Source: a virus
IMG/VR virus record: IMGVR_UViG_3300001525_000450
Coordinates: 1-51,555 of that record
Direction: 5' to 3' (one strand)
DNA length: 51,555 nt
The position numbers were made by a program, and so were the translations under genes. Positions 1 to 51,555 of this stretch are shown here, one piece after another (within the stretch, counting starts at the first letter, position 1; every line of letters starts with the position of its first letter). A model generated the notes under the pieces. That model was not told the origin of the DNA. It ran no database searches and was given only the letters and a program-made list of their open reading frames with translations.

Positions 1-75
1 AAACATGTCTGGATTCAAAACCATGTAACCAGAACCCCAAGAGAAACACATTTGATCTTTGCCTTTGATTGGCTC
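1..75. repeat. 75-bp terminal direct repeat, copy 1 (identical to 51481..51555); most likely circular-assembly overlap
   Basis: Bases 1-75 (aaacatgtctggattc...tgattggctc) recur base-for-base at 51481-51555. The repeat lies inside a coding frame that reads across the junction. Confidence 0.95.
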
Positions 76-78
76 CAT
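1..78 (-). CDS. 5' part of a 49-aa junction-spanning hypothetical protein (MEPIKGKDQMCFSWGSGYMVLNPDMFYRLPQKRQDQIIAAVCKAAERSK); continues from 51480 to 51409
   Basis: ATG at 78..76 is preceded by a GGGAGGAG RBS that overlaps the rSAM stop. The frame stays open through base 1, continues from 51480, and ends with a TAA overlapping the kinase ATG (TAATG). Confidence 0.5.
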   Translation of the reverse strand, partial: MEPIKGKDQMCFSWGSGYMVLNPDMF

Positions 79-85
79 TTATATC

Positions 86-1063
86 TTACTCCTCCCAAGG
101 ACGTTTGTAAAGAGTTTTGCACAAATGTTTATTGTTTTTCGAAATGCTTCGAGCATAGCTCAAAATCTTGTCATTGGGTTCTGGCATATCTTCTTTGCCA
201 CGGCCATCAGGCAACAACCCAACACGATGACTCAATGCGTTGCACCCATAGCAGGGCTTGAAACTTCGTTCACCTGCATACAACAGAATTCGAGCAGCTT
301 CGAATCGTTTACTGTACCAAATGTTCTCAATGCTCTGCTCCATGATGTTGCCAATTGGGTACTCACCACGGAAGTCATTACAGCAGATTGCCACAGAGCC
401 GTCATAGCGGATCGCCAGCTCTCTGAAAGGACGAGCGCACCGTTTACCCTGATAGGACGTGTCAAGAGGTCCAGCTGCTCCACAGTGGTTGCACAGATGA
501 CGATTGATAGCTTTCTCTTTTTGAATCGGAGGATTGAACAAAACGCGGAAGCCATTAGCATTTGTACTGTACAAAGGAACCTTGGGTGCCAGATGTTCAA
601 TCTTCAGATCAGATACTTCCTGAAGAGCGTCCTCAATCGTTCGAGCATCACCTTTGTCAGCATAATAGTCGATGATCAGATCGTTAAGGCCAGCATCTCT
701 CAGAGCATAGACTCGATCAACAATAGTCTTTTGATCTGCTACCATGCCAAACCCATTGACAATGCCATAGCCATTGCTCATCATAGACATGACCGCTTTG
801 GGAAAAGCCTTTCTGAACATCTTGATGATTCTAACTGCATTAGAGTTAAGGGTTGGTTCTCCATGCATAGAGAAGATAAATCTGCTGTGCCAGCCAACAC
901 GTTTGACTTCAGCAATAATTCGCTCTGCAGTTTCTTTCTTCATGCGGTACCAAGGCTGAGTTCCTTTCTCTCGCATGCCACGAAGACCACAGAATTTGCA
1001 TCCCAGATTGCAGCCCTCATTCAGCTCAATCTGAATAGAATATGGTGGGCTCTGTTTTCTCAC
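86..1063 (-). CDS. radical SAM enzyme with C-terminal SPASM/twitch-like Cys-rich domain
   Basis: CNLGCKFC (CxxxCxxC) near the N-terminus. C-terminal CARPF..DGSVAICCNDF..GNI..SIENIW..CYGC resembles a SPASM domain. GTG start at 1063 follows GGGAGGA and overlaps the upstream stop as GTGA; the ORF-track ATG at 1084 is an alternative. Confidence 0.85.
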   Translation of the reverse strand: MRKQSPPYSIQIELNEGCNLGCKFCGLRGMREKGTQPWYRMKKETAERIIAEVKRVGWHSRFIFSMHGEPTLNSNAVRIIKMFRKAFPKAVMSMMSNGYGIVNGFGMVADQKTIVDRVYALRDAGLNDLIIDYYADKGDARTIEDALQEVSDLKIEHLAPKVPLYSTNANGFRVLFNPPIQKEKAINRHLCNHCGAAGPLDTSYQGKRCARPFRELAIRYDGSVAICCNDFRGEYPIGNIMEQSIENIWYSKRFEAARILLYAGERSFKPCYGCNALSHRVGLLPDGRGKEDMPEPNDKILSYARSISKNNKHLCKTLYKRPWEE

Positions 1064-2013
1064 TTTGATTCCTCCCAGAAACATTTGATTCTCTTGCTGC
1101 CATGGATCTTATGATAGGCTGTCCAATTGATGTCACCCCACATATAGTCACCATCGGCATCTCTGAAGCTGGTTCGCAGATAGTCCTTGATTGGGTATTT
1201 CTGCAACATATTGTATTCGTATCGATGAAGCTCTTTCTCAGTTTCAGGAGTACGAATAACACTATCGCACTTCTCACTCACATAGTCATATGTCAAGCAA
1301 GGAATATTGAAGCAGTGACCACCATTGGCAAGAATGACAGCACAGAACCCAATGTCGTCACCGTGACGATCAAAAATCATGTCACGATCAATCTTTGCCT
1401 TGTAAAGACCCTTGACATTTATCAAAGTGACCTGACGAGGGGTTGGACCGGAATCAACGATGTATTTCAGCTTGGCATTTTCCACATGCTGGGACATCCG
1501 TTGACGACGAATGTTACCCAAATAGACCTTTGGGTATGTCTTAAAAACTTCTTTGCCAATGACACCAGCCATTGTCAGAACTTTTTGCTCGAGCAGTGGA
1601 TCTGCTTCTCGATCTGCATTGATAGCATGCTTAGAACAAGGATTGCCAGACCCAGAGAACCCATCGTACATATACGCAAGATTGCGAATATCATCATCCA
1701 TGTCAATGATCATTGAATACTTATGCTCAGCGGCATACTCATAGATGAATTGACGAGTGCTGGCCAACCCATTGATTGGCAGATGAAAGTCTTTTGCGAT
1801 GGGTAGAATGTGAAGATTTGGATTTGCCTTTCGATAGGCTTTTGCTTGTTCCGGACGAACAACAATATGGATCTTTTCAAGAGCTTCTGGTTCAAAATTC
1901 TTGAACATCTCAGCAGTTACAAAGTGAGGTCTGTTGTACGAGGGAACAAATATATGAGGAAGTTGATTCACAGACAAGCTGTTAAGGTGTCTGTACATTT
2001 CTTGCTTTTTCAT
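1060..2013 (-). CDS. GT-A fold glycosyltransferase-like protein (candidate DNA-base glycosyltransferase)
   Basis: N-terminal IFVPSYNRP (GT2-type PxYNR motif) and DMDDD (DxD motif). GAGGTGA RBS upstream of ATG 2013. Sits directly upstream of, and is translationally coupled to, the rSAM gene. Confidence 0.55.
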   Translation of the reverse strand: MKKQEMYRHLNSLSVNQLPHIFVPSYNRPHFVTAEMFKNFEPEALEKIHIVVRPEQAKAYRKANPNLHILPIAKDFHLPINGLASTRQFIYEYAAEHKYSMIIDMDDDIRNLAYMYDGFSGSGNPCSKHAINADREADPLLEQKVLTMAGVIGKEVFKTYPKVYLGNIRRQRMSQHVENAKLKYIVDSGPTPRQVTLINVKGLYKAKIDRDMIFDRHGDDIGFCAVILANGGHCFNIPCLTYDYVSEKCDSVIRTPETEKELHRYEYNMLQKYPIKDYLRTSFRDADGDYMWGDINWTAYHKIHGSKRIKCFWEESK

Positions 2014-2025
2014 GAATTCACCTCA

Positions 2026-2058
2026 TAAAAAGTGCCCTCCCATGGGCTGAGAGGGCAT
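2026..2058 (-). terminator. intrinsic terminator-like hairpin between the SSB gene and the glycosyltransferase gene
   Basis: On the minus strand, UGCCCUC..(11-nt loop)..GAGGGCA is followed by CUUUUUAU. It lies 18 nt after the SSB stop and immediately before the GT RBS. Confidence 0.55.
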
Positions 2059-4593: not shown

Positions 4594-4670
4594 TGGTCGA
4601 GATGACAGGATTCGAACCTGCGACATCTTGGTCCCAAACCAAGCATTCTACCTGCCTGAATTACATCTCG
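4594..4670 (-). tRNA. tRNA-Pro (anticodon UGG), CCA encoded
   Basis: The reverse complement folds as a cloverleaf: acceptor CGAGATG/CATCTCG, D stem ATTC/GAAT, anticodon stem CTTGG/CCAAG with loop TTTGGGA, T arm GCAGG-TTCGAAT-CCTGT, then A-CCA. Confidence 0.85.
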
Positions 4671-4954: not shown

Positions 4955-5030
4955 TGGTGCCAGAAACAGGACTCGAACCTGCAATCAGCTGATTACAAAA
5001 CAGTCGCACTACCAATTGTGCTATCCTGGC
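4955..5030 (-). tRNA. tRNA-Thr (anticodon UGU), CCA encoded
   Basis: Acceptor GCCAGGA/TTCTGGC, D arm GCAC-AATTGGTA-GTGC, T arm GCAGG-TTCGAGT-CCTGT, A-CCA. The anticodon loop TTTGTAA is closed by only three Watson-Crick pairs, with mismatches at 27-43 and 31-39. Confidence 0.7.
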
Positions 5031-5249: not shown

Positions 5250-5600
5250 TCAGGCATCCTCGTACTCATCGTCGTCGACATCTTCCTCGTCGTCAACGAC
5301 CTCAGGCTCCGGAGCTTTCTTGGCTTTCTTGGCAGGCTTTGCAGCAGTCTTCTTGGCAGCAGGGGCTTTCTTCGCGGACTTCTTCTTTTCGGGTTCCTTT
5401 TCCTCGGTCACACGAGATGCACAGCGAGGAGTCTTGGCATCGATCTGCTTGCCAGTCTCACGGTCGAATGTGGTGGTGCGGCCGTTCTTCTGAACGATAG
5501 AGATCGTCTTCTTGTCAGAGGCAGTGATCTCGAACTCGCCGAGATACATGCCAGTGAATGCATACATGTGGATTTTTTCGCCTTTCTTACGAGTGATCAT
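5250..5600 (-). CDS. small protein with Lys/Ala/Pro-rich basic segment and acidic C-terminal tip (DNA-binding-like)
   Basis: GGAGG RBS, own promoter upstream. C-terminal half is EKKKSAKKAPAAKKTAAKPAKKAKKAPEPEVVDDEEDVDDDEYEDA. Confidence 0.7.
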   Translation of the reverse strand: MITRKKGEKIHMYAFTGMYLGEFEITASDKKTISIVQKNGRTTTFDRETGKQIDAKTPRCASRVTEEKEPEKKKSAKKAPAAKKTAAKPAKKAKKAPEPEVVDDEEDVDDDEYEDA

Positions 5601-6126: not shown

Positions 6127-7821
6127 TTAATGTGTACCCCATGGACCCCAGCCAATGTCAATGTCCAAAGGAACTCGAAGTTCAACCCCAAAGTCATCAA
6201 GCACTTTTGGGTGAAGCATGACTCTGCGGATGACAGAGTCTACATAGTCTTTGTCTTCAATCCGGCACTCTCCAATAATTGAGTCATGAACTGTAGCACC
6301 GATCCAAGCAACACCCTTGAGTTCCTTATTGATTTGAGTTGCAGCAGAGATCAGCAAGTCAGACCCAGAACCCTGAACAGGTGTATTGATAGATCGCCTG
6401 GCAGCACTGGCTCGCTCCCATTTGTTCTGGGAATAGATCAAGGGAAGTTTCCTGAATCGACCAAACAGATTATACACGCCACCCTGAGCTTCACACAGTT
6501 GCTCTTGCTCTTGATGCCAAGGAAGCAGTCTTGAATACTTGGCAAAGAACAATTCACGAATATGCTCAGCTTCTTGTGGTGTAAATGTTTGACCATAGCT
6601 ATTGAGAGCATATGCAACGAACTTCTTTGCCATCATACCATAAAGGAACCCGAAATTGACAGCTTTGGCCTTGCCACGTTCCTCTTTTGTGGGTTCACGA
6701 CCACCAGTGAACAGCTTGGCGGTCTCAGTATGAATATCACCTTTCTCATGGTAGATCCGGAGCATGGTTTTCTCATTGGCATAATGAGCAGCGATACGCA
6801 ACTCCAGCTGAGAATAATCAGCTTCAAATAGGATCATGCCTGGAGCACCACTGAAGAGCCCTCGAATATCCTTTGTACGAGGAACCTGCTGAAGATTCGG
6901 GTTGCTCGAGCTGGTTCGTCCAGAAACAACATTAGTCAAGTTGAAGCTGGCATGAATTCGACTCTCATAGGAATCATCTTCCCATCTGTTAAGGAACATC
7001 TTATTTCTTGTAGCAGCATCTTTGTACTGCATCAAGATTGTAGGAATTTCATAACCTTTGCGAGCCAGTTTCTTCAGTGCAGAAGCCGAAGTAGATGGAG
7101 CGCCTTTGGGTGTCTGCTCAAATACAGGCATCTTCTCAAGATCATAGAATACATGAGCGACCTGAGCTGAGCTCGCCCAGTTGATATCATAATTGCTTTT
7201 GAGTTTGGCAAGAAGAGATTCTTCCTCTTTCTTGTACTTTGCTCGAACCACTTTTAACTGGTTAAGGTCTATGTACAATCCGTTGCGTTCAATGTCTCTA
7301 TATGCACAGTATGCGGGACGGAGCAGCTGAGTATAGATCTTGAGCTGTTGAGGGTTCGCTCGCTCCATAAAGAAATTGAAGAGCCCCCAGGTATACTTGA
7401 CGTCTTTCTTCAAATAAGGAACAATGCTCTGAGCACCAGAAGTCTTTTCTTTCTTTGCAATATCCCAATCTGGAACACCCAAGTATTCCTGTGCCATGTG
7501 TTTCAAACCATGCTCAGCAGAAAGATCATATGCTGTAGCAATCAGCATAACATCCTCATGAATCGGCAACTTGATCCCATAGGCTTGCTCAAGAAACAGT
7601 GTATCGAATTTGCCATTTTGAAATACTGTACGAACCTTGTGTTGTTTGAGTTTCTTTACAAGAGCTCTGAACCGATCTACTTGACCAGGCTTCTGCACAT
7701 TGAAGATGTATCCTTTGAAGATGGGTTCACCAACGTCTTTGGAAAGGCCAACACCAATGAATGTGACCTTGTCTTTGTATCGGTTAAGGCCTGTTGTTTC
7801 GATATCAATTGTAGCATACAA
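6127..7821 (-). CDS. family A DNA polymerase with 3'-5' exonuclease domain
   Basis: DIETTGL (Exo I), SSSNPNLQQVPR, KAVNFGFLYGM (motif B), VHDSII (motif C). AGAGGTGAG RBS. Confidence 0.95.
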   Translation of the reverse strand: MYATIDIETTGLNRYKDKVTFIGVGLSKDVGEPIFKGYIFNVQKPGQVDRFRALVKKLKQHKVRTVFQNGKFDTLFLEQAYGIKLPIHEDVMLIATAYDLSAEHGLKHMAQEYLGVPDWDIAKKEKTSGAQSIVPYLKKDVKYTWGLFNFFMERANPQQLKIYTQLLRPAYCAYRDIERNGLYIDLNQLKVVRAKYKKEEESLLAKLKSNYDINWASSAQVAHVFYDLEKMPVFEQTPKGAPSTSASALKKLARKGYEIPTILMQYKDAATRNKMFLNRWEDDSYESRIHASFNLTNVVSGRTSSSNPNLQQVPRTKDIRGLFSGAPGMILFEADYSQLELRIAAHYANEKTMLRIYHEKGDIHTETAKLFTGGREPTKEERGKAKAVNFGFLYGMMAKKFVAYALNSYGQTFTPQEAEHIRELFFAKYSRLLPWHQEQEQLCEAQGGVYNLFGRFRKLPLIYSQNKWERASAARRSINTPVQGSGSDLLISAATQINKELKGVAWIGATVHDSIIGECRIEDKDYVDSVIRRVMLHPKVLDDFGVELRVPLDIDIGWGPWGTH

Positions 7822-8254: not shown

Positions 8255-8594
8255 TTTTGCCACCTCTTTCTCTTCCCTTTGGGCAATACCAATTTTCTGG
8301 CTTTTCTGTTTTATCAAGGCTGCACAGCATCTTGAATACTCGCTTTGGTGCATTCTTCTTGTGAAATTTCTTGTAGAACTCACAGTTCTTACAACGGCAT
8401 ACTTTCTCAAGAGAATTGAGATCAAATGGATCATAGCACCAATGGTAAAGGTTCTCTATTTGAGCAATAGCTGCATCAATCGAGATCTTTTGAGTCCCAA
8501 GCTCTGTTGGAAATTCTACTTCTGCATTTGGAGTTTTCCTTCTCTTACTCTTCAGGGTGTCTATAGCAATAGACAATACTTGTCGTGTTGTCAT
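8223..8594 (-). CDS. hypothetical protein (123 aa) with CxCxxC motif
   Basis: MTTRQVLS start lies 2 nt after the HD-gene stop. Contains CRCKNCEF. Confidence 0.55.
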   Translation of the reverse strand: MTTRQVLSIAIDTLKSKRRKTPNAEVEFPTELGTQKISIDAAIAQIENLYHWCYDPFDLNSLEKVCRCKNCEFYKKFHKKNAPKRVFKMLCSLDKTEKPENWYCPKGRERGGKNDAESAGVEV

Positions 8595-8596
8595 AA

Positions 8597-9145
8597 TCAA
8601 AGACCCATAACTTGAGAAGCCCACATATCCGCAGTGTGAGTATAAAGGACGTTCTCATATGCACAACATGCAGCAGAATAGCCTTTCCAGTATTTCTCAC
8701 CCTCGAATGGACCCATATGCCAACGAATGCAATAGAGTTCTTCAGGAGTGAGGTCAAGGAACTGCTGAATGAGAATTACACTGGCATCACCATGCCCAGG
8801 AAGAATTGAATTGCCCGTGTGGGTGTAAGTCCCATCCCCTTGCCTTGTATACAGCTTTGTTTTGCAGTAGTCATGCAGCATGCCAATGAGATATGGAGAA
8901 GCAGGTCTTTCCCATTTGAGATGAAGAAAATCTGTATACTCATGGAGCTTCCATGCTACAGCATAGGAGTGATCAAAAAGACCACCCTCATAATTGCCAT
9001 GATGAGAAGCTGATGCAGGAGCAGTGAAGAACCCATCGTCTATGAGCTGTTGAACCAGCCCATGATTATATGGATCGGGTATAATGCCCATGAACAAATC
9101 GATACGATCTTGCATTGTTCTATTGATCAGTGGCTGACTTTTCAT
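8597..9145 (-). CDS. HD-domain phosphohydrolase
   Basis: SASHHGNYEGGLFDHS and IGMLHDYCK provide the H..HD..D signature. Confidence 0.8.
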   Translation of the reverse strand: MKSQPLINRTMQDRIDLFMGIIPDPYNHGLVQQLIDDGFFTAPASASHHGNYEGGLFDHSYAVAWKLHEYTDFLHLKWERPASPYLIGMLHDYCKTKLYTRQGDGTYTHTGNSILPGHGDASVILIQQFLDLTPEELYCIRWHMGPFEGEKYWKGYSAACCAYENVLYTHTADMWASQVMGL

Positions 9146-9149
9146 AAGA

Positions 9150-11084
9150 TCACCTCTTGAATTGTTTGAGAGTTATGCCTTTCCAGCTTGCCTCTCGTGT
9201 CTTTGGGTTTCTATATTCTATGTACCCAAGAGACCTCATGTTTCGAATAAATCCGTGCTTTTTGTGGCATTCACGACCACTGCTCACACAGAATTGCGCA
9301 TAGGCTTCATAGAGAGCATCCTTGCCAATATATGCATCTTGGTCTTTCTTGCACTTCTTTACAAGGAATGCATGAATACTATCAGAGTCCTGACGCAAGC
9401 CCTCCACCATTCGATTGGAGCGTTCTGTACGAGGAATTGCTTCTACTGGCAAAAGGCTGAGCAGATATGGAATGACTTCTTCAACGCTCTCATCACTGCA
9501 AAGATCATTGACATATGCATCGTTAAGGAATAGCTCATGATTCATGTACAGAATCCGCATTCGTTTGTAGAATGCATTTGACTTTTCTTCCAGCTGAAGT
9601 GGGAGCTGGTTGAAAGAAAAGATCAGTTTGCAGAAAGGTACAAAGAAGAAAGGCTCTTTGCCTTTCTTTTCATGCATGATTTGGTCACCACCAGTGATCT
9701 TTTTCAAGTTCTCGATACTGCTCAGTGGCAATGAACCATTATCACCACAGGAGTTCAGCAGTGTATTGTACAGCTGAGCTGGGTAGAATCGAGCACTGAG
9801 TTCATGCATACTTAAAGATGAGACGTTTTCTCGCCCAACCATATTCTCAATGAATCGGAGCAAAACGGATTTGCCCGTATTAGACTGACCACAGAGGATC
9901 ATAAAGGTTTTCAGGCCATAATTCAAGGTCAAGCAATATGCCATATATTTCAAGGCCATTTTGATATCTTCCTTGTTAAGGCAAGTCTTTTTGAAGAACT
10001 GATAGAGCCTTGTATTTACAAAAGGAACGTATTCACCCACTTCATGTGGGATCTGCAGTGTTTGTAGATACTTGCTATCATGAGGAAGAAGTTTCCCCTG
10101 CTCAATATCCCAAACACCATTCTTGAAGTTGATCAGATTGTGATCCTTGTTAAGGTCTTTTGTCTCTTTTTGAAGTCGTGTATCATCAATAATCAGCCGG
10201 AAGCACTCCATGATTCTTGCCTGAGTGATCAAGCTGTCAACCATGATCATATCACGAATTGTATTGCGAACATAACTGCTGGCTTCTTTGTACACACCCT
10301 CTTGGTAAAGGTATGCTTCACCGCCCAAGACAAATATGTCACCACGATTGACGAAGTAGTCACATATTGCTCGGCTGTTCACATTGACTGGGTGACCTTT
10401 GGTATTGTAAATCAAATAGGGGTTGTCACCCTGTTCCTGAGCTTCATAGTTCTTTGTGTTGCGAATGATCTTCTCAAGCTCTTCCTCATCCATGGGTTGA
10501 TCAAAAATGATAGTATTGATGATGTGAGCCATCTTATCAATCTGATCATCATTGGCACCTCTGTTTTTGTATGCCATAAGATGAGCAAAGAGTGTAGCGT
10601 TTCTGCCATCACCCTCCTTAAGACCCAGAAGAGATTCTCTTCTGTTTGCCATTGGGGTGAATTCAAGAGGAAGATCTTCAATCGTCCTGCAATTATTGAA
10701 CTTTCGGTTTTCTGTGCCCCAAGGAAGAATGACATAACCTTTGTTGGCACAGCGAAAATCACATTTAAGACCACAAGGCAAGATCATGCCGATACGCTGA
10801 GGAAAGTCCTTGTTGGTCTTAAAGTAAAGGTGTAGACCCTTTGGAGTCTTACACATTAGAGTTTTGAGGTGCATTTTGCGAACAACCTTGAGAGCTTCTT
10901 CTTTGCCCTCATCAATATCAACAATGATATATCCGGTTCGCACCCACCAACCAATCTGCCCACCGTTCTCAACGTGAGCAGCTGCAGCTCTTTCAGGTAC
11001 AATAGCAGTGTCGATACGCTTCTTTTCCATACAGCGCACATAGCTGTCTTGCCCGATCAAGCTGTTAAACTCAGATAATTTCAT
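9150..11084 (-). CDS. bifunctional primase-polymerase / SF3 helicase (D5/P4-alpha-like)
   Basis: N-terminal prim-pol-like IIVDIDEG. Walker A LCGQSNTGKS with a P4-type primase C-terminal region. 644 aa. Confidence 0.9.
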   Translation of the reverse strand: MKLSEFNSLIGQDSYVRCMEKKRIDTAIVPERAAAAHVENGGQIGWWVRTGYIIVDIDEGKEEALKVVRKMHLKTLMCKTPKGLHLYFKTNKDFPQRIGMILPCGLKCDFRCANKGYVILPWGTENRKFNNCRTIEDLPLEFTPMANRRESLLGLKEGDGRNATLFAHLMAYKNRGANDDQIDKMAHIINTIIFDQPMDEEELEKIIRNTKNYEAQEQGDNPYLIYNTKGHPVNVNSRAICDYFVNRGDIFVLGGEAYLYQEGVYKEASSYVRNTIRDMIMVDSLITQARIMECFRLIIDDTRLQKETKDLNKDHNLINFKNGVWDIEQGKLLPHDSKYLQTLQIPHEVGEYVPFVNTRLYQFFKKTCLNKEDIKMALKYMAYCLTLNYGLKTFMILCGQSNTGKSVLLRFIENMVGRENVSSLSMHELSARFYPAQLYNTLLNSCGDNGSLPLSSIENLKKITGGDQIMHEKKGKEPFFFVPFCKLIFSFNQLPLQLEEKSNAFYKRMRILYMNHELFLNDAYVNDLCSDESVEEVIPYLLSLLPVEAIPRTERSNRMVEGLRQDSDSIHAFLVKKCKKDQDAYIGKDALYEAYAQFCVSSGRECHKKHGFIRNMRSLGYIEYRNPKTREASWKGITLKQFKR

Positions 11085-11098
11085 AGACTGTCATCCTA

Positions 11099-11455
11099 TT
11101 AGTTCATAGTTACTGTTCGATCCTCTACAGTGCGCTGCATACTGGTGCTGTTGTCAAGCCAACGCTGTACACGCTCAACCTTGGCAACCTTTCTGACATC
11201 GATCTCTTCCTGGTTAAGGTTGAAGATCGCTTTGACATGATGCAGAATAATCTCAACGTCAGCCACCTCATCAATAGCTTTCTGATGAAGATCAAGCTGA
11301 GCTTCATACTCGGAATCATATCGAGGAAACTTTGCCAACACACAGGCCAGCTCATTGAGTTCCTCGATGGCAACCAAGATCTGATTTTTATTGCCATAGA
11401 CATCACGAGCTTTGGCAAGTGTTGTTGCAATGCTATTTGCCTGTTCTTGGGTCAT
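11099..11455 (-). CDS. MazG-like all-alpha NTP pyrophosphohydrolase
   Basis: AIEELNELACVL and IDEVADVEIIL (EExxE...ExxD metal-binding pattern). GAGGTGA RBS before MTQEQ. Confidence 0.75.
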   Translation of the reverse strand: MTQEQANSIATTLAKARDVYGNKNQILVAIEELNELACVLAKFPRYDSEYEAQLDLHQKAIDEVADVEIILHHVKAIFNLNQEEIDVRKVAKVERVQRWLDNSTSMQRTVEDRTVTMN

Positions 11456-11465
11456 ATATATCACC

Positions 11466-11942
11466 TCAATTCACTGCATCAGGAGCATCCCAGCTGGTCA
11501 CCTGAACACTCTTCACACCGTTATATGCAAAGATCTGCTCTGTTTCCTCACTGATATACTGCTTGCGCCCATAGTACACCTCTGTGATTCCTGCAGCAAC
11601 AATAACACGTGCACAGGCTTCACAAGGATAGCGTGTTACATAGATTCGTCCACCTCGTGCAGATCTTTCCAGATGAGCAATAGCATCAACTTCACTATGG
11701 ATAGCACGGCAATCTGCAGGTCCACGATGGGTCTTATCATTGTTGCCATATTTCTTGATACGCAAGCAGCCCTCAAACTGACAAAGATTTGGGATTGTTG
11801 CATTTGCTCCAAAGGAGAGAATTCTGCCATGCTTATCTGTAATGCAAGACCCAACAGCAACTTTCAAGCATCCTGATCTTGATTCTGCATAGGTCTGAGC
11901 CATGTCAAGATATCTTTTGACAGGCATTTGTTCATTTGCCAT
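11466..11942 (-). CDS. deoxycytidylate (dCMP) deaminase
   Basis: HSEVDAI (HxE) and PCEACARVI (PCxxC) zinc motifs. MANEQ start overlaps the upstream stop (ATGGCAAATGA). Confidence 0.9.
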   Translation of the reverse strand: MANEQMPVKRYLDMAQTYAESRSGCLKVAVGSCITDKHGRILSFGANATIPNLCQFEGCLRIKKYGNNDKTHRGPADCRAIHSEVDAIAHLERSARGGRIYVTRYPCEACARVIVAAGITEVYYGRKQYISEETEQIFAYNGVKSVQVTSWDAPDAVN

Positions 11943-12129
11943 TGTTGTTCCTCTTTTCCTGTTCTTTCTGTTCACGACGAGCTTTCTCACGACGTGCTGC
12001 TCGGCACTCACTACAATGCGTGAAAGGCTTCAGCCCACGAGTTTCGAGCCAAGCCAGCTCGTTGTCAGAGATAGAGAAAGGACGATTGCAGGTCTTGCAG
12101 ATCCTCTGCTGACGATTGTTTTCTGCCAT
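11932..12129 (-). CDS. zinc-ribbon protein (zf-trcl-like)
   Basis: CKTCNRPFSISDNELAWLETRGLKPFTHCSECR, two CxxC pairs with a basic tail. GGAGG RBS. Confidence 0.55.
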   Translation of the reverse strand: MAENNRQQRICKTCNRPFSISDNELAWLETRGLKPFTHCSECRAARREKARREQKEQEKRNNNGK

Positions 12130-12144
12130 GATGAAGTACCTCCA

Positions 12145-13173
12145 TTATTTGTGTTGTTTGTATTTGACACGAGGACGACCAGTGCCCTCGATTGTCCGAA
12201 TGTATTTGCTGAGCTCACACATACAGTTTTCCAAGCTCATAATGTTAAGGCAACGATCATATATGGGAAGATCTATGAAAATTTCTCTCGGATCCCAATA
12301 CTGACCGTTGGGTTCCATGATCTTTGAGAAGATATGATCAACATTGTCTCTCAGCCAGAACAGTGCTTCTTCTGGAGACATGCCGTCATAGTCATCAAAA
12401 AGATAATCGAGTCCTTTCTTACACCCAGGGCCAGCTACAACAAATTCGTTTTCACTGAATGGGAACTCTTTTATATAGGTCAAGTCAACAAAGACTTGAT
12501 ATGCCAGAAAATCAGAGAATCCCTGAATCTCTTTGATGATCTCAAATGCAGCTTTTTGGTTACTGGCGTTCATGAGTCTATTGACTGTATCATGCTGCTG
12601 AAGCCATGGACCAAGATGGAACACTCGTAAAGGTATATCCTGTTCTACTCCGTCACTGAAATGATCAATATCTCCCCATCTCCAGGCCTGTTTTGTTCCA
12701 CCTTGATTATATGCTGAGCTCCACCATTTACGCTCCGGATCTTCTTCAAGGAGCCATTTGTAAATGGGTCGCACCAAAGACTTCATTCTTTGTGAAGAGT
12801 AAAGGGCTTTTGCTTGCCACGGACCACCAAAATCTCGCATTGTATCCCAGTTGTTCCATGCTCTAAAATAGAACGTATTGATGATTTTGTCAATCAGAGC
12901 AAGATCGGGATTGGTACTGATGTTTTTGATAAGATACTGGCTCTGACGATCATGTTCACGACGAACATTACAGAACTTGTACTGCTGCAGAACCCCATCG
13001 TTGGTCCAGGGAGCTTCTTTGTGAAGAACATCTTTGCGAAGATGAATTTTATATCGCTCTGTTACAAAATCATAGAATCTTCGCATGTTCTCAAGATTGT
13101 ACTTTGGGTTTGCAACTCGGATTTTGATCCTGTTGACACCACAGTACAACTTGTCTCGAGGTTTGGTTTTCAT
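12145..13173 (-). CDS. alpha-glutamyl/putrescinyl-thymine pyrophosphorylase-like (aGPT-Pplase-like) DNA base hypermodification protein, tentative
   Basis: APWTNDGVLQQYKFCNVRREHDRQSQYL matches my recollection of the PWTxDxIL..Y.FxNV.RE.DR signature of this phage family. ATG at 13173 with an AAGGCGGTG RBS, directly downstream of its own promoter. Confidence 0.45.
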   Translation of the reverse strand: MKTKPRDKLYCGVNRIKIRVANPKYNLENMRRFYDFVTERYKIHLRKDVLHKEAPWTNDGVLQQYKFCNVRREHDRQSQYLIKNISTNPDLALIDKIINTFYFRAWNNWDTMRDFGGPWQAKALYSSQRMKSLVRPIYKWLLEEDPERKWWSSAYNQGGTKQAWRWGDIDHFSDGVEQDIPLRVFHLGPWLQQHDTVNRLMNASNQKAAFEIIKEIQGFSDFLAYQVFVDLTYIKEFPFSENEFVVAGPGCKKGLDYLFDDYDGMSPEEALFWLRDNVDHIFSKIMEPNGQYWDPREIFIDLPIYDRCLNIMSLENCMCELSKYIRTIEGTGRPRVKYKQHK

Positions 13174-13203
13174 ATCACACCGCCTTTGCTTCAAGTATTA
13201 CAT

Positions 13204-49377: not shown

Positions 49378-49806
49378 TCAAACTCCTTTCTTCAGAAACT
49401 CACAATAGGATTTGTGAATGGCAATATTCAAGTCTTTGTGATTGACATCAAGTCTATGACACCAGTAAAGAAAATCTTGCTCAACTGGGATTGCCTTGTC
49501 ATCAATGTAAAGGTCAGCAAAAACCTTTCTTGTGTCATTGTTGTAGAGAGCAATCACTTCAGGAATATTTGTATTGATTGCATCAAATACAATTCCTTTC
49601 TGGTGGCAATAGGAGACAGCATCAATGAGATTTTTGCCATCTCGAGATGTCCAAAGAATGACTCGTACACCTTGCGCCTGAAGAGCTTTTACAAGGCTGA
49701 ACATTCCCATATTGGGCTCCCCAATTTCAGGGAATTTGTCTTCTACCAAAGTACCATCAAAATCGATAGCAACAATCTTTGGCAGATCATTATTTGTTTT
49801 GTTCAT
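49378..49806 (-). CDS. HAD-superfamily phosphatase-like protein
   Basis: IVAIDFDGTLVED (DxDGT motif I), ILWTSRDG (motif II-like), LYIDDKA (motif IV-like). GAGGAG RBS. Confidence 0.65.
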   Translation of the reverse strand: MNKTNNDLPKIVAIDFDGTLVEDKFPEIGEPNMGMFSLVKALQAQGVRVILWTSRDGKNLIDAVSYCHQKGIVFDAINTNIPEVIALYNNDTRKVFADLYIDDKAIPVEQDFLYWCHRLDVNHKDLNIAIHKSYCEFLKKGV

Positions 49807-50179
49807 ATTTTACAGTCTCCTCTTTCATGTGGAGAGAGGTCCAATTCTTTATGACCCCATCCATAGGAAGTGCAGCATGCCCAAGTGTTGGGCTGAATAG
49901 TTCAAAATATCTGTCTTGATATGCGATGTAAATTGCTTTTTTCACAGAGTCTACATCGCTCTTTCGAGCCATTTTGAATGTGATATCGAAGTCTTCTTTG
50001 CACCATTTTCTGATCCAAACACTTATGTCAAACCCATCAGTGTTTGTAGCTTTTGAAAAGGCATCCCAGACTTCAACAGGTACATAGCAAAAATGAATCC
50101 AAATGATCCCTTGATCACTTATTACCTTTGACAGAACTTTCCTGTACACCGCTTTCGAGTTTGGGCTTCTGTGTCTCAT
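49790..50179 (-). CDS. hypothetical protein (129 aa)
   Basis: GGAGGG RBS before MRHRSPNSK. Overlaps the 3' end of the ThyA-like gene by 65 nt. Confidence 0.5.
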   Translation of the reverse strand: MRHRSPNSKAVYRKVLSKVISDQGIIWIHFCYVPVEVWDAFSKATNTDGFDISVWIRKWCKEDFDITFKMARKSDVDSVKKAIYIAYQDRYFELFSPTLGHAALPMDGVIKNWTSLHMKEETVKYEQNK

Positions 50180-50981
50180 TGTTACCCTCCGGAGCTTTTT
50201 CACCATCCGGCAAGTTGCGCTCATAGATATGTAACGAACCAGCCTGATGGGTATATGTACCAACATCAACACCCAAAGTCATTGCCATCATCACCTGCAT
50301 AGAGCAGAAGCTGAACATGTCATAGGGTACACCAGTCCAGACGTCATTGGAACGCATGGTTGTCGTGAGGTTAAGGCGACCGTCACGGAGCAAGAACTGA
50401 AGAGACAATGTACACGGAGTATCTTTTGTTGGCTCACTCATGGGTCGAGGATTCTTGATCTGAATCACTGCCTGGCGACTATTCGGATCAGCTTTGAGAC
50501 GGTTAATGACATCCTGCCACTGATCAAACCCATAGAAATGCTGAATCTTGTGACCATAGCAGCTATTGACTGTTTCTCCGTCATCACTCATACGGTTCCA
50601 AGCAGAACTGAAAAGCCCAATGTCTTTGAGTTTGTTAGACCCAGAGAGATACCACAGCAATTCACCCACAGCATAACGCATGGGCATCTTGCGAGCTTCA
50701 CTCTTGACAATCATACGGGTGGGATCCTTGACAACGGTGATAGCATTGATGATCTCAGCAGCCACAGCGCCATCACGAGAGGAAGCAGTTTTCTTATTCA
50801 TACGGTGCTGAGCCAGCAGAGCAGCGAACCAGTATTCCCATGCATTATTGACATCGTTGACAACCACATAATTGTCAATATCAGCATCGCCACACAGGCG
50901 ATCACTCTTGTTGTAAAGGGACGTGAGCTTATACTCTTTTACAACTTTATTGAAGTCTTCCACATTGAACAGCAAACCCAT
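50115..50981 (-). CDS. thymidylate synthase-family pyrimidine C5 (hydroxy)methylase with Asp at the Asn177-equivalent position (dCMP-specific type predicted)
   Basis: ELLWYLSG, DPNSRQ, catalytic Cys in TPCTLSLQF, RSNDVWTGVPYD (ThyA: RSCDVFLGLPFN), GSLHIYERN. GGAGG RBS before MGLLFNV. Confidence 0.8.
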   Translation of the reverse strand: MGLLFNVEDFNKVVKEYKLTSLYNKSDRLCGDADIDNYVVVNDVNNAWEYWFAALLAQHRMNKKTASSRDGAVAAEIINAITVVKDPTRMIVKSEARKMPMRYAVGELLWYLSGSNKLKDIGLFSSAWNRMSDDGETVNSCYGHKIQHFYGFDQWQDVINRLKADPNSRQAVIQIKNPRPMSEPTKDTPCTLSLQFLLRDGRLNLTTTMRSNDVWTGVPYDMFSFCSMQVMMAMTLGVDVGTYTHQAGSLHIYERNLPDGEKAPEGNNETQKPKLESGVQESSVKGNK

Positions 50982-50983
50982 TT

Positions 50984-51409
50984 TTAAGTCCTCCAAATCT
51001 CAATCTGCAGAGTTGAATTTCCCATGACCTCATCGAACCGCTTCATCAGCTCTTTGACAGGATACATGGGAGTTTCGTTGCGCTTGTTAAGGCGCTCTTC
51101 GATAGTCTTTTCTTGAGTGGTGACATAGATCACCTTTGCACCACGAGCAAGCATAGCAGTCTCCAAATGATAGAGATCTTCCTTGCTCAGCTTCCGTTCT
51201 TCAGGAGTCTGATAAACGAACTGACCATAGCAAAACCGATCAGCAATCACATTTTCATTGGTCGCTGCATCGAGAATGTGATGGAAATAACGATAGTCAT
51301 TTGGGGTATCCTTTGTACAGTGGATAATACGTGCGTTGAGAATTCTTGCGAGCTTTCTGGCGATAGTGCTTTTGCCAACGCCATCAACTCCCTCCAATAC
51401 AATGAGCAT
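50984..51409 (-). CDS. short P-loop nucleotide kinase (Tmk/dNMP kinase-like)
   Basis: MLIVLEGVDGVGKSTIARKLA (Tmk-type P-loop), DRFCYGQFVY. Only 141 aa. Confidence 0.7.
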   Translation of the reverse strand: MLIVLEGVDGVGKSTIARKLARILNARIIHCTKDTPNDYRYFHHILDAATNENVIADRFCYGQFVYQTPEERKLSKEDLYHLETAMLARGAKVIYVTTQEKTIEERLNKRNETPMYPVKELMKRFDEVMGNSTLQIEIWRT

Positions 51410-51555
51410 TATTTGCTCCTTTCTGCTGCCTTGCAGACAGCTGCAATGATTTGATCTTGTCTCTTCTGGGGCAACCTATAAAACATGTCTGGATTCAAAA
51501 CCATGTAACCAGAACCCCAAGAGAAACACATTTGATCTTTGCCTTTGATTGGCTC
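51409..51555 (-). CDS. 3' part (all but the start codon) of the 49-aa junction-spanning hypothetical protein
   Basis: Same ORF as 1..78 read across the circular junction. TAA at 51411..51409 overlaps the kinase ATG. Confidence 0.5.
   Translation of the reverse strand, partial: EPIKGKDQMCFSWGSGYMVLNPDMFYRLPQKRQDQIIAAVCKAAERSK
51481..51555. repeat. 75-bp terminal direct repeat, copy 2
   Basis: Identical to bases 1-75. Confidence 0.95.

Follow-up and report, generated by a model that had tools for sequence, protein, structure and literature searches.

Organization of the Locus

The window analyzed here, the whole 51,555-nucleotide stretch of IMG/VR virus record IMGVR_UViG_3300001525_000450, begins with a pair of genes on the minus strand. 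The upstream gene (1060..2013; start ATG at 2013, stop TGA at 1062..1060) encodes a GT-A glycosyltransferase (GT) of 317 aa, and the downstream gene (86..1063) encodes a radical SAM (rSAM) enzyme of 325 aa with a GTG start codon. The GTG at 1063..1061 shares its TG with the GT stop codon to give GTGA, and the coding sequence of GT contains a GGGAGGA ribosome-binding site for rSAM (1070..1076, minus strand), located 6 nt before the GTG. Both features, from which a preliminary description had proposed translational coupling, were confirmed on the minus strand from the sequence. An alternative in-frame ATG for rSAM is present at 1084. The GTG was taken as the start codon because homologues in the alignment start at this position or a few residues from it and the Shine–Dalgarno placement fits. 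Overlaps of the GTGA type occur commonly in operons of phages and are unremarkable alone, and among relatives this one was not universal: on three contigs, a 375-nt insert separated the two genes. Upstream of the pair, a terminator-like hairpin with a 10-bp stem and a T tract (2033..2057, minus strand) lies between a DUF669 gene and the GT start and is followed by a GAGGTG ribosome-binding site ahead of GT; the interval from this hairpin to the start of GT yielded no sigma-70-like promoter.

Bases 1–75 of the window are identical to bases 51481–51555, and this 75-nt terminal repeat shows that the genome is circular or circularly assembled. When the repeat was collapsed, an ORF of 49 aa came after the rSAM stop codon, followed by a kinase gene and a ThyA-like gene, in agreement with the gene order previously proposed. 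The 5′ part of the 49-aa ORF (1..78, minus strand; ATG at 78) spans the duplicated end, and the TAA of its 3′ part (51409..51480, minus strand) overlaps the kinase ATG (TAATG). The GT–rSAM pair has recombination/replication genes on one side and the kinase and ThyA(Asp) genes on the other, in a single, tightly packed operon, with the ThyA(Asp) gene three genes downstream of GT; this arrangement was kept in relatives.

Nucleotide-Modification Genes

The kinase (141 aa; 50984..51409, minus strand) is a dTMP-kinase-like dNMP kinase (Pfam Thymidylate_kin, E=1.5e-12; phrog_761) and is predicted from its family to act as a 5hm-dCMP kinase. The ThyA homologue (50115..50996, minus strand; Pfam Thymidylat_synt, E=1.4e-33) had the CMP 5-hydroxymethylase MilA as its best PDB match (E=2.3e-34). 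The residue rules for the dCMP-hydroxymethylase signature in the thymidylate synthase superfamily comprise N177D, an acidic residue at the L143 position, retention of D169, and the catalytic Cys (PMC13326640). Residue mapping showed that the ThyA homologue carries this signature: N177 is replaced by Asp, a further Asp precedes the catalytic Cys by three residues, D169 is retained, and the catalytic Cys is present. The L143 position was assigned by motif, as this further Asp aligns with the E. coli A144 column, next to L143, and the L143 column is a gap in another alignment. The ThyA(Asp) assignment of the preliminary description was thus upheld, and a 5-hydroxy-dCMP synthase was rejected because D169 is retained. 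The same operon also contains a 142-aa HAD-type phosphatase and a conserved ORF of unknown function, which has an uncertain start and encodes about 160 aa (both within 49378..50272, minus strand); the two are syntenic in relatives.

Away from this operon, a MazG-like NTP pyrophosphohydrolase (121 aa; phrog_2245, E=2e-14) and a dCMP deaminase (181 aa; phrog_174, E=1e-30; also Pfam dCMP_cyt_deam_1) are encoded at 11099..12011 on the minus strand, and by analogy these nucleotide-pool genes are in line with T-even logic. The aGPT-Pplase-like protein noted earlier is present at 12145..13194 (minus strand; Pfam HMUDK_hel, E=1e-59), likewise away from the operon, and has no P-loop. Its full-length homologues occur in ViI-like and Microbacterium phages, one Microbacterium copy being annotated as "pyrophosphorylase." Neither a PF18748 kinase nor a Pfam aGPT-Pplase match was found in the window; PF18748 kinases are carried by two relatives (L024 and L025).

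Family Assignment of the Glycosyltransferase

The preliminary description recognized a GT-A-like protein with PSYNRP and DMDDD motifs, and this was borne out by Pfam and by fold. Both motifs are in the GT protein (R28 and D106–D108, respectively), and the alignment of homologues showed R28, D106–D108, T191/R193, and G218/D220 to be invariant. GT matched Pfam TAGT (PF20691) at 42 bits (cutoff 27.5; E=1.3e-10), the profile covering only the N-terminal half of the protein (aa 20–117), and PF20691 was present in 91 of 98 GT homologues. It was also assigned to the phrog_4519 GTs (E=6e-24). The AF2 model (pLDDT 93.5) had a GT-A fold, and all PDB structure matches were GT-A enzymes, among them GTs acting on proteins or teichoic acid (E about 1e-5 to 1e-6). 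Its top neighbors in BFVD were TAGT proteins (E 1e-26 to 1e-10), and the viral structural neighbors included beta-glucosyl-HMC-alpha-glucosyltransferase. GT is therefore a TAGT-family enzyme with a GT-A fold, by a Pfam score above cutoff and viral fold neighbors, and not a cell-wall GT. TAGT-family members glycosylate 5hmC DNA (bioRxiv 10.1101/2023.12.21.572611; PMC13390438), and family membership together with gene context suggests that the substrate of GT would be the 5-hydroxymethyl group in DNA.

Family Assignment of the Radical SAM Protein

The rSAM protein matched Pfam Radical_SAM (E=6e-11; 43 bits, cutoff 29.5) and Pfam SPASM (E=6e-14). Alignment of homologues showed an invariant CX3CX2C motif at C18/C22/C25 and an invariant H67-G68-E69-P70. 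The auxiliary-cluster Cys residues are C209, C227, C271, and C274; in addition, C228 is invariant and C194 near-invariant. The seven-Cys motif of full SPASM enzymes, CX9-15GX4C ... CX2CX5CX3C ... C, corresponds to two auxiliary clusters, whereas the conserved C-terminal pattern of rSAM consists only of C209-x12-G-x4-C227 and C271-x2-C274. No CX5CX3C follows C274 and later Cys residues are not conserved, which rules out a full SPASM enzyme. Thus, of the radical SAM/SPASM assignment made initially, the CxxxCxxC motif, the C-terminal Cys cluster, and the SPASM match stood, and the domain itself is of the Twitch type with one auxiliary cluster.

BtrN was the best PDB match by sequence (5.7e-11), profile (6.8e-20), and fold (Foldseek E=9e-12; TM 0.72 on BtrN length). 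The profile match covered both halves of rSAM, and the runner-up reached only 1.9e-5. C169, the Cys of LPCFEDF, C232, and C235 of BtrN, which we take to be its auxiliary-cluster ligands (Goldman et al. 2013), aligned to C209, C227, C271, and C274. We conclude that rSAM is a BtrN-like Twitch enzyme. A BtrN orthologue was ruled out by an identity of about 20%, the absence of aminoglycoside pathway genes from the window, and a different gene context made up of phage replication and nucleotide genes. The second fold match was BlsE, which acts on a cytosine-linked sugar, and DesII was also among the fold matches. The structure model of rSAM was moderate (pLDDT 72.6).

Other identities of rSAM were considered. 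Matches to PADLOC pVip (21 bits, N-terminal rSAM core only) and NCBIfam viperin (21 bits, cutoff 180) were weak and confined to the rSAM core, and a viperin/pVip identity was dismissed. An rSAM of the phage M6 gp53 type, which is SPL-like, was also ruled out: tblastn of the window rSAM against 50,697 GenBank phage records gave one match, to a fecal contig and not to M6, and SPL was absent among the fold matches. A further reading makes rSAM a RiPP maturase whose precursor peptide is encoded by the adjacent 49-aa ORF; the ORF is small, encodes two Cys residues, lies immediately downstream, and is translationally coupled, and peptide maturases are frequent among SPASM/Twitch enzymes. However, the ORF was kept in close relatives only, and in relatives with rSAM proteins 55–76% identical to that of the window it was absent or replaced by unrelated small ORFs, which makes such a role unlikely. 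Moreover, CX3CX2C begins at residue 18, too early for a RiPP recognition domain to precede it at the N terminus, the best NCBIfam RiPP matches scored 16–22 bits against cutoffs of 300 or more, and the conserved partner of rSAM is GT, not a peptide. The maturase reading, which we regard as highly improbable, was rejected on the non-conserved ORF and the absent recognition domain. With no conserved precursor peptide and no characterized equivalog matched, rSAM did not fall into any of the well-characterized unrelated families that the preliminary description had named as a possible outcome.

Distribution and Gene Neighborhood

The rSAM family comprised 274 cluster representatives at E<=1e-30 and is essentially viral, cellular homologues in a GTDB genome scan being limited to three MAG contigs. 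Megablast of 8 kb for close cultured relatives returned tRNA-sized matches only. The nearest GenBank relatives were a rodent-derived virus (sample type not stated), which encodes the nearest PolA (57% identical) and lacks the GT–rSAM pair, and Clostridium perfringens phages; the host is probably an anaerobic Firmicute, likely of the Clostridia type and from the gut.

The pair and its gene order were conserved down to about 50% backbone identity, which is far beyond chance, and GT and rSAM were the best-conserved proteins of the module in the two relatives that had diverged most (about 50–60% backbone identity). Among 38 dereplicated rSAM loci, 18 had a TAGT-like GT within 4 genes, and tblastn added one more (19/38). 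ThyA homologues were found near rSAM in 14–16 of these loci and HMUDK_hel proteins in 11–13. TAGT–rSAM fusions formed two separate 50%-identity clusters, one of them on three contigs from three sources. The neighborhood survey called for earlier thus showed a recurrent adjacency of GT and rSAM, which together with the two fusion clusters strongly supported the proposed GT–rSAM link. An apparent second rSAM paralogue proved to be TAGT-like GTs joined to the rSAM family through a fusion protein and was separated by domain-level HMM searches. Two neighbor families were not counted as GTs: f16 gave sub-threshold GT-B matches only, and f48 had no match in Pfam, PHROGs, or PDB.

Some loci carried a PIG-L-like putative deacetylase beside rSAM, and one protein was a PIG-L/GT-A fusion. 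In about ten dereplicated loci, rSAM was part of a virion or lysis module and ThyA was absent within 10 kb, so the family may not always target DNA. The pair of the window could likewise have a target other than DNA, for example a protein of the virion or a polymer of the host cell envelope; in one large locus group, rSAM is flanked by genes for head morphogenesis and lysis and has GT-like and PIG-L-like neighbors, and protein and teichoic-acid GTs are among the PDB neighbors of GT, as described above. In the present genome, however, the pair adjoins the kinase, ThyA(Asp), and recombination/replication genes in a packed operon, GT scores as TAGT with DNA GTs as its viral structural neighbors, and ThyA recurs next to rSAM across the family. 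We therefore consider a non-DNA target quite improbable.

Proposed Function of the GT–rSAM Pair

The explanation that we favor, with slightly better than even confidence, is that the region is a two-enzyme DNA-hypermodification module heading a nucleotide-modification operon, in which 5hmC would be glycosylated and the sugar then tailored by radical chemistry. Judging from family signatures, the MazG-like NTPase, ThyA(Asp), and the dNMP kinase would convert dCTP/dCMP to 5-hydroxymethyl-dCTP, which the phage polymerase would incorporate so that 5hmC replaces C. The TAGT-type GT-A enzyme would then place the sugar of a host nucleotide-sugar on the 5-hydroxymethyl group in DNA, a step proposed from family and context. 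Finally, rSAM would cleave SAM at the CX3CX2C cluster and remove a hydrogen from one of the carbinol carbons in the sugar, with the electron passing to the one auxiliary [4Fe-4S] cluster of the enzyme. This would yield a keto-sugar or an epimerized or deoxygenated sugar derived from it, and rSAM would most likely act after transfer, on the DNA-bound sugar. In an anaerobic host, the resulting tailored glycosyl-5hmC may protect the phage genome against the nucleases of that host. Modified virion DNA, the sugar, its acceptor, and the rSAM substrate are all predictions from sequence. Several observations count against the model: the window encodes neither an aminotransferase nor any other enzyme that would obviously use up a keto-sugar, the model gives the aGPT-Pplase-like protein no evident role in a 5hmC phage, and the identity of about 20% to BtrN is low and the rSAM structure model only moderate.

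The order of the last two steps could be reversed, with rSAM first turning a nucleotide-sugar of the host into an unusual keto, deoxy, or epimerized donor, whose sugar the TAGT enzyme then attaches to 5hmC. The NDP-sugar level is the usual stage of sugar tailoring, the fold matches DesII and BlsE use small sugar-nucleotide substrates, and GT–rSAM adjacency and fusion are equally compatible with tailoring before transfer. Against this order, the GT and rSAM proteins are both basic (pI 9.25 and 8.54, respectively), and the PIG-L-type deacetylases next to rSAM suggest post-transfer tailoring in those loci, neither point being decisive. In all characterized cases, PIG-L-type deacetylases (MshB, BshB, BtrD, and PIG-L) act on already-attached GlcNAc. 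Tailoring before transfer is the nearest variant of the favored model, and we judge it unlikely.

Alternatively, rSAM could act on the base, either oxidizing the 5-hydroxymethyl group of 5hmC/5hmU to an aldehyde, comparable to the Ser/Cys oxidation by anSME, or carrying out a radical C–C rearrangement, with GT acting on a separate base fraction. Alcohol dehydrogenase-type rSAM enzymes include BtrN and anSME, ThyA homologues of both base types and HMUDK_hel proteins co-occur with the rSAM family, and an rSAM of phage M6 acts on modified thymine (PMC8989533). However, GT needs the same hydroxyl group, so the adjacency and fusion of the two enzymes would remain unexplained, as would the PIG-L-like loci without a nearby ThyA, and rSAM has no similarity to M6 gp53. 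The co-occurrence of rSAM with both Asp177 and Asn177 ThyA types fits action on an appended group rather than on the base, and the base-acting reading appears improbable.

Returning to the favored reading of glycosylation followed by tailoring, the repeated adjacency and fusion of rSAM with DNA-type GTs predict an oxygen-independent radical step in the building of DNA-linked glycans. A bolder version, which we put forward tentatively and with clearly less than even confidence, is that rSAM acts directly on the DNA-attached sugar and that the TAGT–rSAM pair may be a portable cassette for keto-, amino-, epi-, or deoxy-glycosyl pyrimidines on the 5hmC and 5hmU genomes of anaerobe-infecting phages; among radical SAM enzymes that tailor carbohydrates, rSAM would then be the first to use a DNA-bound substrate. 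Hypermodification of their DNA lets phages overcome restriction and CRISPR systems, and such modifications have also provided tools for epigenetic sequencing and nuclease-resistant DNA. The proposed module, if correct, would expand natural DNA chemistry and offer a defined, testable enzyme pair.

Comparison With Known Systems

To our knowledge, M6 gp53 is the only radical SAM enzyme that takes part in installing a DNA modification. Like this glycinyl-thymine isomerase, the present rSAM lies in a phage pyrimidine-hypermodification cluster beside a ThyA homologue; gp53 differs in resembling spore photoproduct lyase without a Twitch or SPASM domain (PMC8989533), and instead of a GT the M6 pathway requires a 5-HMUDK kinase together with aGPT-Pplase2. 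Microbacterium phages (Neferthenavirus and related) share full-length GT homologues (25–29% identity), ThyA Asp177, a thymidylate-kinase-like gene, MazG, and an HMUDK_hel homologue with the present phage, whereas they have a second GT instead of a radical SAM gene and an aerobic host. We found no characterized DNA modification in the Microbacterium phages with this GT/ThyA/kinase module.

BtrN, the 2-deoxy-scyllo-inosamine dehydrogenase of butirosin biosynthesis (PDB 4M7T), is a carbohydrate-type alcohol dehydrogenase. Its rSAM core and Twitch domain align with those of the phage protein over the full length, with the four auxiliary-cluster Cys residues shared, and some related phage loci, with a PIG-L-like protein and a possible GT, echo BtrD and BtrM. 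In contrast to BtrN, the phage family has the extra invariant C228, about 60 more residues, and a viral, DNA-modification context without 2-deoxystreptamine pathway genes.

T-even 5hmC glucosylation uses a dCTPase, the gp42 dCMP hydroxymethylase, the gp1 dNMP kinase, and DNA glucosyltransferases including the TAGT-family beta-glucosyl-HMC-alpha-glucosyltransferase of T2/T6. The present phage similarly has a ThyA homologue with Asp at N177, a dNMP kinase, a MazG-like NTPase, a dCMP deaminase, and a TAGT-family GT. Unlike T-even phages, it is small (about 51 kb), with an unrelated backbone, probably an anaerobic Firmicute host, and an only distantly related GT, and it has an rSAM partner and an aGPT-Pplase-like protein, both missing from T-even phages. 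Accordingly, the possible novelty claimed for the whole gene combination holds for the rSAM step and the overall combination, while the GT, ThyA(Asp), and kinase part follows known T-even logic. Literature searches turned up no phage DNA GT described together with a BtrN-like, SPASM, or radical SAM partner, and such a partner appears to be undescribed.

The GT-A enzymes of 5mYOX/TET-associated metavirome phages belong to the same GT family and share the R...DDD motifs (Burke et al. 2021; bioRxiv 10.1101/2023.12.21.572611). The preprint reports that they are frequently associated with thymidylate synthase homologues. The tailoring enzymes described in these studies are GTs, epimerases, and kinases, radical SAM neighbors appearing only as "pVip" defense annotations. 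Given the weak pVip matches of rSAM (21 bits), these "pVip" labels may be misreadings of the present rSAM family, and the proposed module, if correct, would explain rSAM genes of hypermodification clusters that were previously read as viperin-like defense genes.

Organization of the GT-rSAM gene pair and its operon

The glycosyltransferase (GT) ORF, encoding 317 aa with the PSYNRP and DMDDD motifs, extends on the minus strand from an ATG at 2013 to a TGA at 1062..1060. The gene for the radical SAM protein (rSAM), as read from the sequence, starts on the same strand with a GTG at 1063..1061, sharing bases with the GT stop codon in a GTGA overlap, and ends with a TAA at 88..86; GGGAGGA is located at 1076..1070 (minus strand), 6 nt upstream of the GTG. 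The motifs, GTGA coupling, and GGGAGGA claimed in the preliminary description were all found. An alternative in-frame ATG for rSAM is present at 1084, and homologues in the alignment start at the GTG position or a few residues away.

An exact 75-nt direct repeat (1-75 and 51481-51555) duplicates part of a 49-aa ORF, and this identity of the ends demonstrated that the record contains either a circular-genome assembly overlap or terminal redundancy. After collapse of the repeat, the 49-aa ORF followed the rSAM stop codon and overlapped the start of the 141-aa kinase gene (50984..51409, minus strand; TAATG), so that the described continuation through this ORF and the kinase into the ThyA-like gene (50115..50996, minus strand) was seen. 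Tightly packed genes for the ThyA homologue, an unknown ORF, a HAD phosphatase, a nuclease-like protein, a small ORF, and an SNF2 helicase lie beyond the kinase, and a bidirectional terminator-like hairpin (47250-47274) closes the far end of the block. Another strong terminator-like hairpin (2057..2033, minus strand) precedes the GT start by 20 nt; no promoter-like site was found between the two, and the GT operon may depend on terminator read-through.

No close phage relative was found in GenBank. The order GT, rSAM, kinase, ThyA, HAD, nuclease, and SNF2 was kept in IMG/VR relatives down to about 50% backbone identity, and GT (72-81%) and rSAM (62-66%) were the most conserved proteins of the module in the two most divergent relatives. 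The 49-aa ORF was restricted to near-identical relatives; it was missing in L015-L017, L024, and L025, and unrelated small ORFs occupied its position in L018 and L019.

Elsewhere in the window, tRNA-Pro(UGG) and tRNA-Thr(UGU) genes (4594-4670 and 4955-5030, minus strand) lie between a PD-(D/E)XK nuclease gene and the polymerase region. Acidic residues and lysine abound in the tail (roughly 120 aa) of a DUF669 protein, and a low-complexity tail of similar kind (Lys/Ala/Glu/Asp) occurs in a second small protein (2077-2817 and 5250-5600, both minus strand). A sigma-70 region-2-like protein is encoded at 17901-18437 (minus strand), and near 18 kb both the GC skew and the coding strand change.

Classification of rSAM

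Pfam assigned Radical_SAM and SPASM domains to the 325-aa rSAM, which approached none of the NCBIfam equivalogs (top match, 52 bits against a cutoff of 380). An alignment of 22 homologues, the most distant at 49% identity, showed conservation of C18/C22/C25, C209, C227, C228, C271, and C274, with C194 nearly invariant; a full SPASM enzyme was ruled out by the absence of the CX2CX5CX3C block. BtrN was the sole strong solved relative, as detected by phmmer (E=5.7e-11) and by the rSAM profile (E=6.8e-20, covering both the core and the C-terminal domain; anSME, 1.9e-5). A Foldseek search with an rSAM model of moderate quality (pLDDT 72.6) likewise retrieved BtrN (E=9e-12; TM 0.72 on BtrN length), followed by BlsE, EpeE, and anSME at about 3-4e-6. 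The four Cys residues of the BtrN auxiliary cluster aligned with rSAM C209, C227, C271, and C274, which makes rSAM a Twitch-type enzyme carrying a single auxiliary cluster. The proposed radical SAM assignment was thus upheld, and the SPASM-like C-terminal Cys cluster is of the Twitch type. Models of prokaryotic viperins (pVips) matched rSAM weakly.

BtrN oxidizes an aminocyclitol at a secondary alcohol, and BlsE acts on cytosyl-glucuronic acid; the nearest characterized relatives of rSAM act on carbohydrate-type alcohols. A role in RiPP maturation, to which the SPASM match might point, is less likely, because the cluster motif begins at residue 18 and rSAM has no N-terminal peptide-recognition domain.

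The nearest PolA matches (a rodent-derived virus, 57%; Clostridium perfringens phages, 37%) and a 456-aa endolysin-like ORF (20705-22075, plus strand), best matched by human faecal phage contigs, suggested that the host is likely an anaerobic gut Firmicute, with which an oxygen-sensitive rSAM would be compatible.

Glycosyltransferase and nucleotide pathway genes

GT belongs to Pfam TAGT (42 bits; cutoff 27.5) and matched a full-length GT family and a beta-glucosyl-HMC-alpha-glucosyltransferase family in PHROGs. Its confident AlphaFold model, built from 25 homologues (pLDDT 93.5), had only generic GT-A enzymes as PDB neighbours (POMGnT1, LH3, ppGalNAcT, and TarP; E about 1e-6 to 1e-5), and TAGT proteins as viral-model neighbours, including a beta-glucosyl-HMC-alpha-glucosyltransferase (E=3e-13). 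The invariant residues R28, D106-D108, T191/R193, and G218/D220 agree with the motif logic published for phage GT-A DNA glycosyltransferases (bioRxiv 10.1101/2023.12.21.572611). The acceptor of TAGT enzymes is 5hmC or a sugar already on 5hmC (bioRxiv 10.1101/2023.12.21.572611; PMC13390438).

The ThyA homologue was nearest in the PDB to the CMP 5-hydroxymethylase MilA (E=2.3e-34; best thymidylate synthase, 2e-22). Asp occupies the N177 position and also precedes the catalytic Cys by three residues, and D169 is kept; the signature rules summarized in PMC13326640 predict a dCMP hydroxymethylase rather than a 5-hydroxy-dCMP synthase. A MazG-like NTPase, a dCMP deaminase, and an HD phosphohydrolase, encoded on the same strand elsewhere in the window, parallel the T-even logic.

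The 349-aa protein encoded at 12145-13194 (minus strand) contains HMUDK_hel alone (E=1e-59), without a P-loop. ViI-like phages encode full-length homologues (34-40% identity), and Microbacterium phages also have homologues, one of which is annotated 'pyrophosphorylase'; the earlier label 'aGPT-Pplase-like' is therefore apt, although the Pfam aGPT-Pplase model gave no match. No P-loop 5-hmdU DNA kinase was found in this phage, whose ThyA homologue is of the dCMP (Asp177) type. ThyA(Asp) co-occurs with a PF18748 5-hmdU-type DNA kinase in L024 and L025, the former also having a second rSAM. Since ThyA(Asp) accompanies HMUDK_hel or PF18748 kinases, these 'thymidine' hypermodification families may also work on 5hmC.

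Distribution and genomic contexts of the rSAM family

The rSAM family comprised 1198 members at E<=1e-5 (indexed search) and 274 representatives of 50%-identity clusters at E<=1e-30 (exhaustive search); only three MAG contigs carried it among GTDB species genomes. Inteins interrupt two members (P0346 and P0475), one with an HNH domain. To survey neighbourhoods, 80 IMG/VR loci were dereplicated to 38, and called ORFs were searched with purpose-built HMMs. TAGT-like GT-A proteins were encoded within four genes of rSAM in 18 of the 38 loci, plus one by tblastn, followed by ThyA homologues (14 loci; 16 within 6 kb), HMUDK_hel (11; 13 within 6 kb), and PIG-L-like proteins (10). A 579-aa TAGT-rSAM fusion with TAGT, Radical_SAM, and SPASM domains is encoded at one locus and recorded on three contigs from three sources, and a second fusion (588 aa) came from a different 50%-identity cluster. 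PIG-L-like and GT-A domains are fused in another protein. The rSAM-adjacent ThyA carries Asp177 in this phage group, whereas 15 more distant loci have Asn177, so rSAM is not bound to a single base.

At about ten dereplicated loci, rSAM lies in a virion or lysis module without ThyA within 10 kb; for the GT-rSAM pair of this phage, a non-DNA target is a less likely reading. In a large phage group (L039, L051, L053, L057, L067, L072, L075, and L079; near 10 kb in each), head/lysis-module rSAM adjoins a PIG-L-like protein together with a TAGT-like GT-A or a ~480-aa protein whose GT-B matches are sub-threshold, a trio recalling BtrN, BtrD, and BtrM; its target there may be DNA or a virion protein. 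Two neighbour families suspected as GT-B (f16 and f48) were not confirmed by searches, and the 346-aa f48 had no match in Pfam, PHROG, or PDB. The order HMUDK_hel, f48, rSAM, ThyA(Asn177), HD/YfbR-like, PolA recurs in distant phages (L085, L092, L096, L102, L103, and L106). By eye, a protein beside rSAM in L105 (191-1108) has a TET/JBP dioxygenase-like HxD...H pattern, sulfotransferase-like RRSG[GS]H proteins lie between GT and rSAM in L091 and L097, and L091 also encodes a radical SAM protein with an SPL-like CSMGCTYC motif (by-eye L091 proteins, 8581-9363 and 6304-7731).

Proposed chemistry and comparison with known systems

Because the partner of rSAM is a glycosyltransferase and its closest relatives act on carbohydrate-type alcohols, we propose that rSAM performs radical tailoring of the sugar of glycosyl-5hmC in this phage. 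The likeliest reaction would be a two-electron oxidation to a keto-sugar, or a derived epimerization or deoxygenation, probably after sugar transfer. The main variant is that rSAM alters the nucleotide-sugar before transfer; direct oxidation of the hydroxymethyl group is less likely.

The known rSAM of DNA hypermodification, phage M6 gp53, is spore photoproduct lyase-like and acts on glycinyl-thymine (PMC8989533). A metavirome study of phage GTs gave their partners as epimerases, other GTs, and kinases, and mentioned 'pVip' annotations in GT clusters only in passing (bioRxiv 10.1101/2023.12.21.572611). The literature searched contained nothing relevant linking SPASM, BtrN, or radical SAM with phage DNA glycosylation, and within it the GT-Twitch rSAM module is undescribed.

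GT homologues occur in at least 174 Microbacterium phages and HMUDK_hel homologues in 34 Microbacterium phage records; no description of their DNA modification was found. Both records examined (L020 and L111; Luna18 and Carostasia) combine the GT homologue with ThyA, kinase, and MazG, and Luna18 has Asp177 in ThyA and an annotated second GT. The GT, kinase, and ThyA(Asp) core represents the known 5hmC-glycosylation paradigm, to which the window adds a new element, a viral Twitch rSAM that has a glycosyltransferase as its conserved partner, up to gene fusion. GT, ThyA(Asp), kinase, MazG, and the HMUDK_hel homologue are common to the window and the Microbacterium phages, whereas rSAM is present only in the former.
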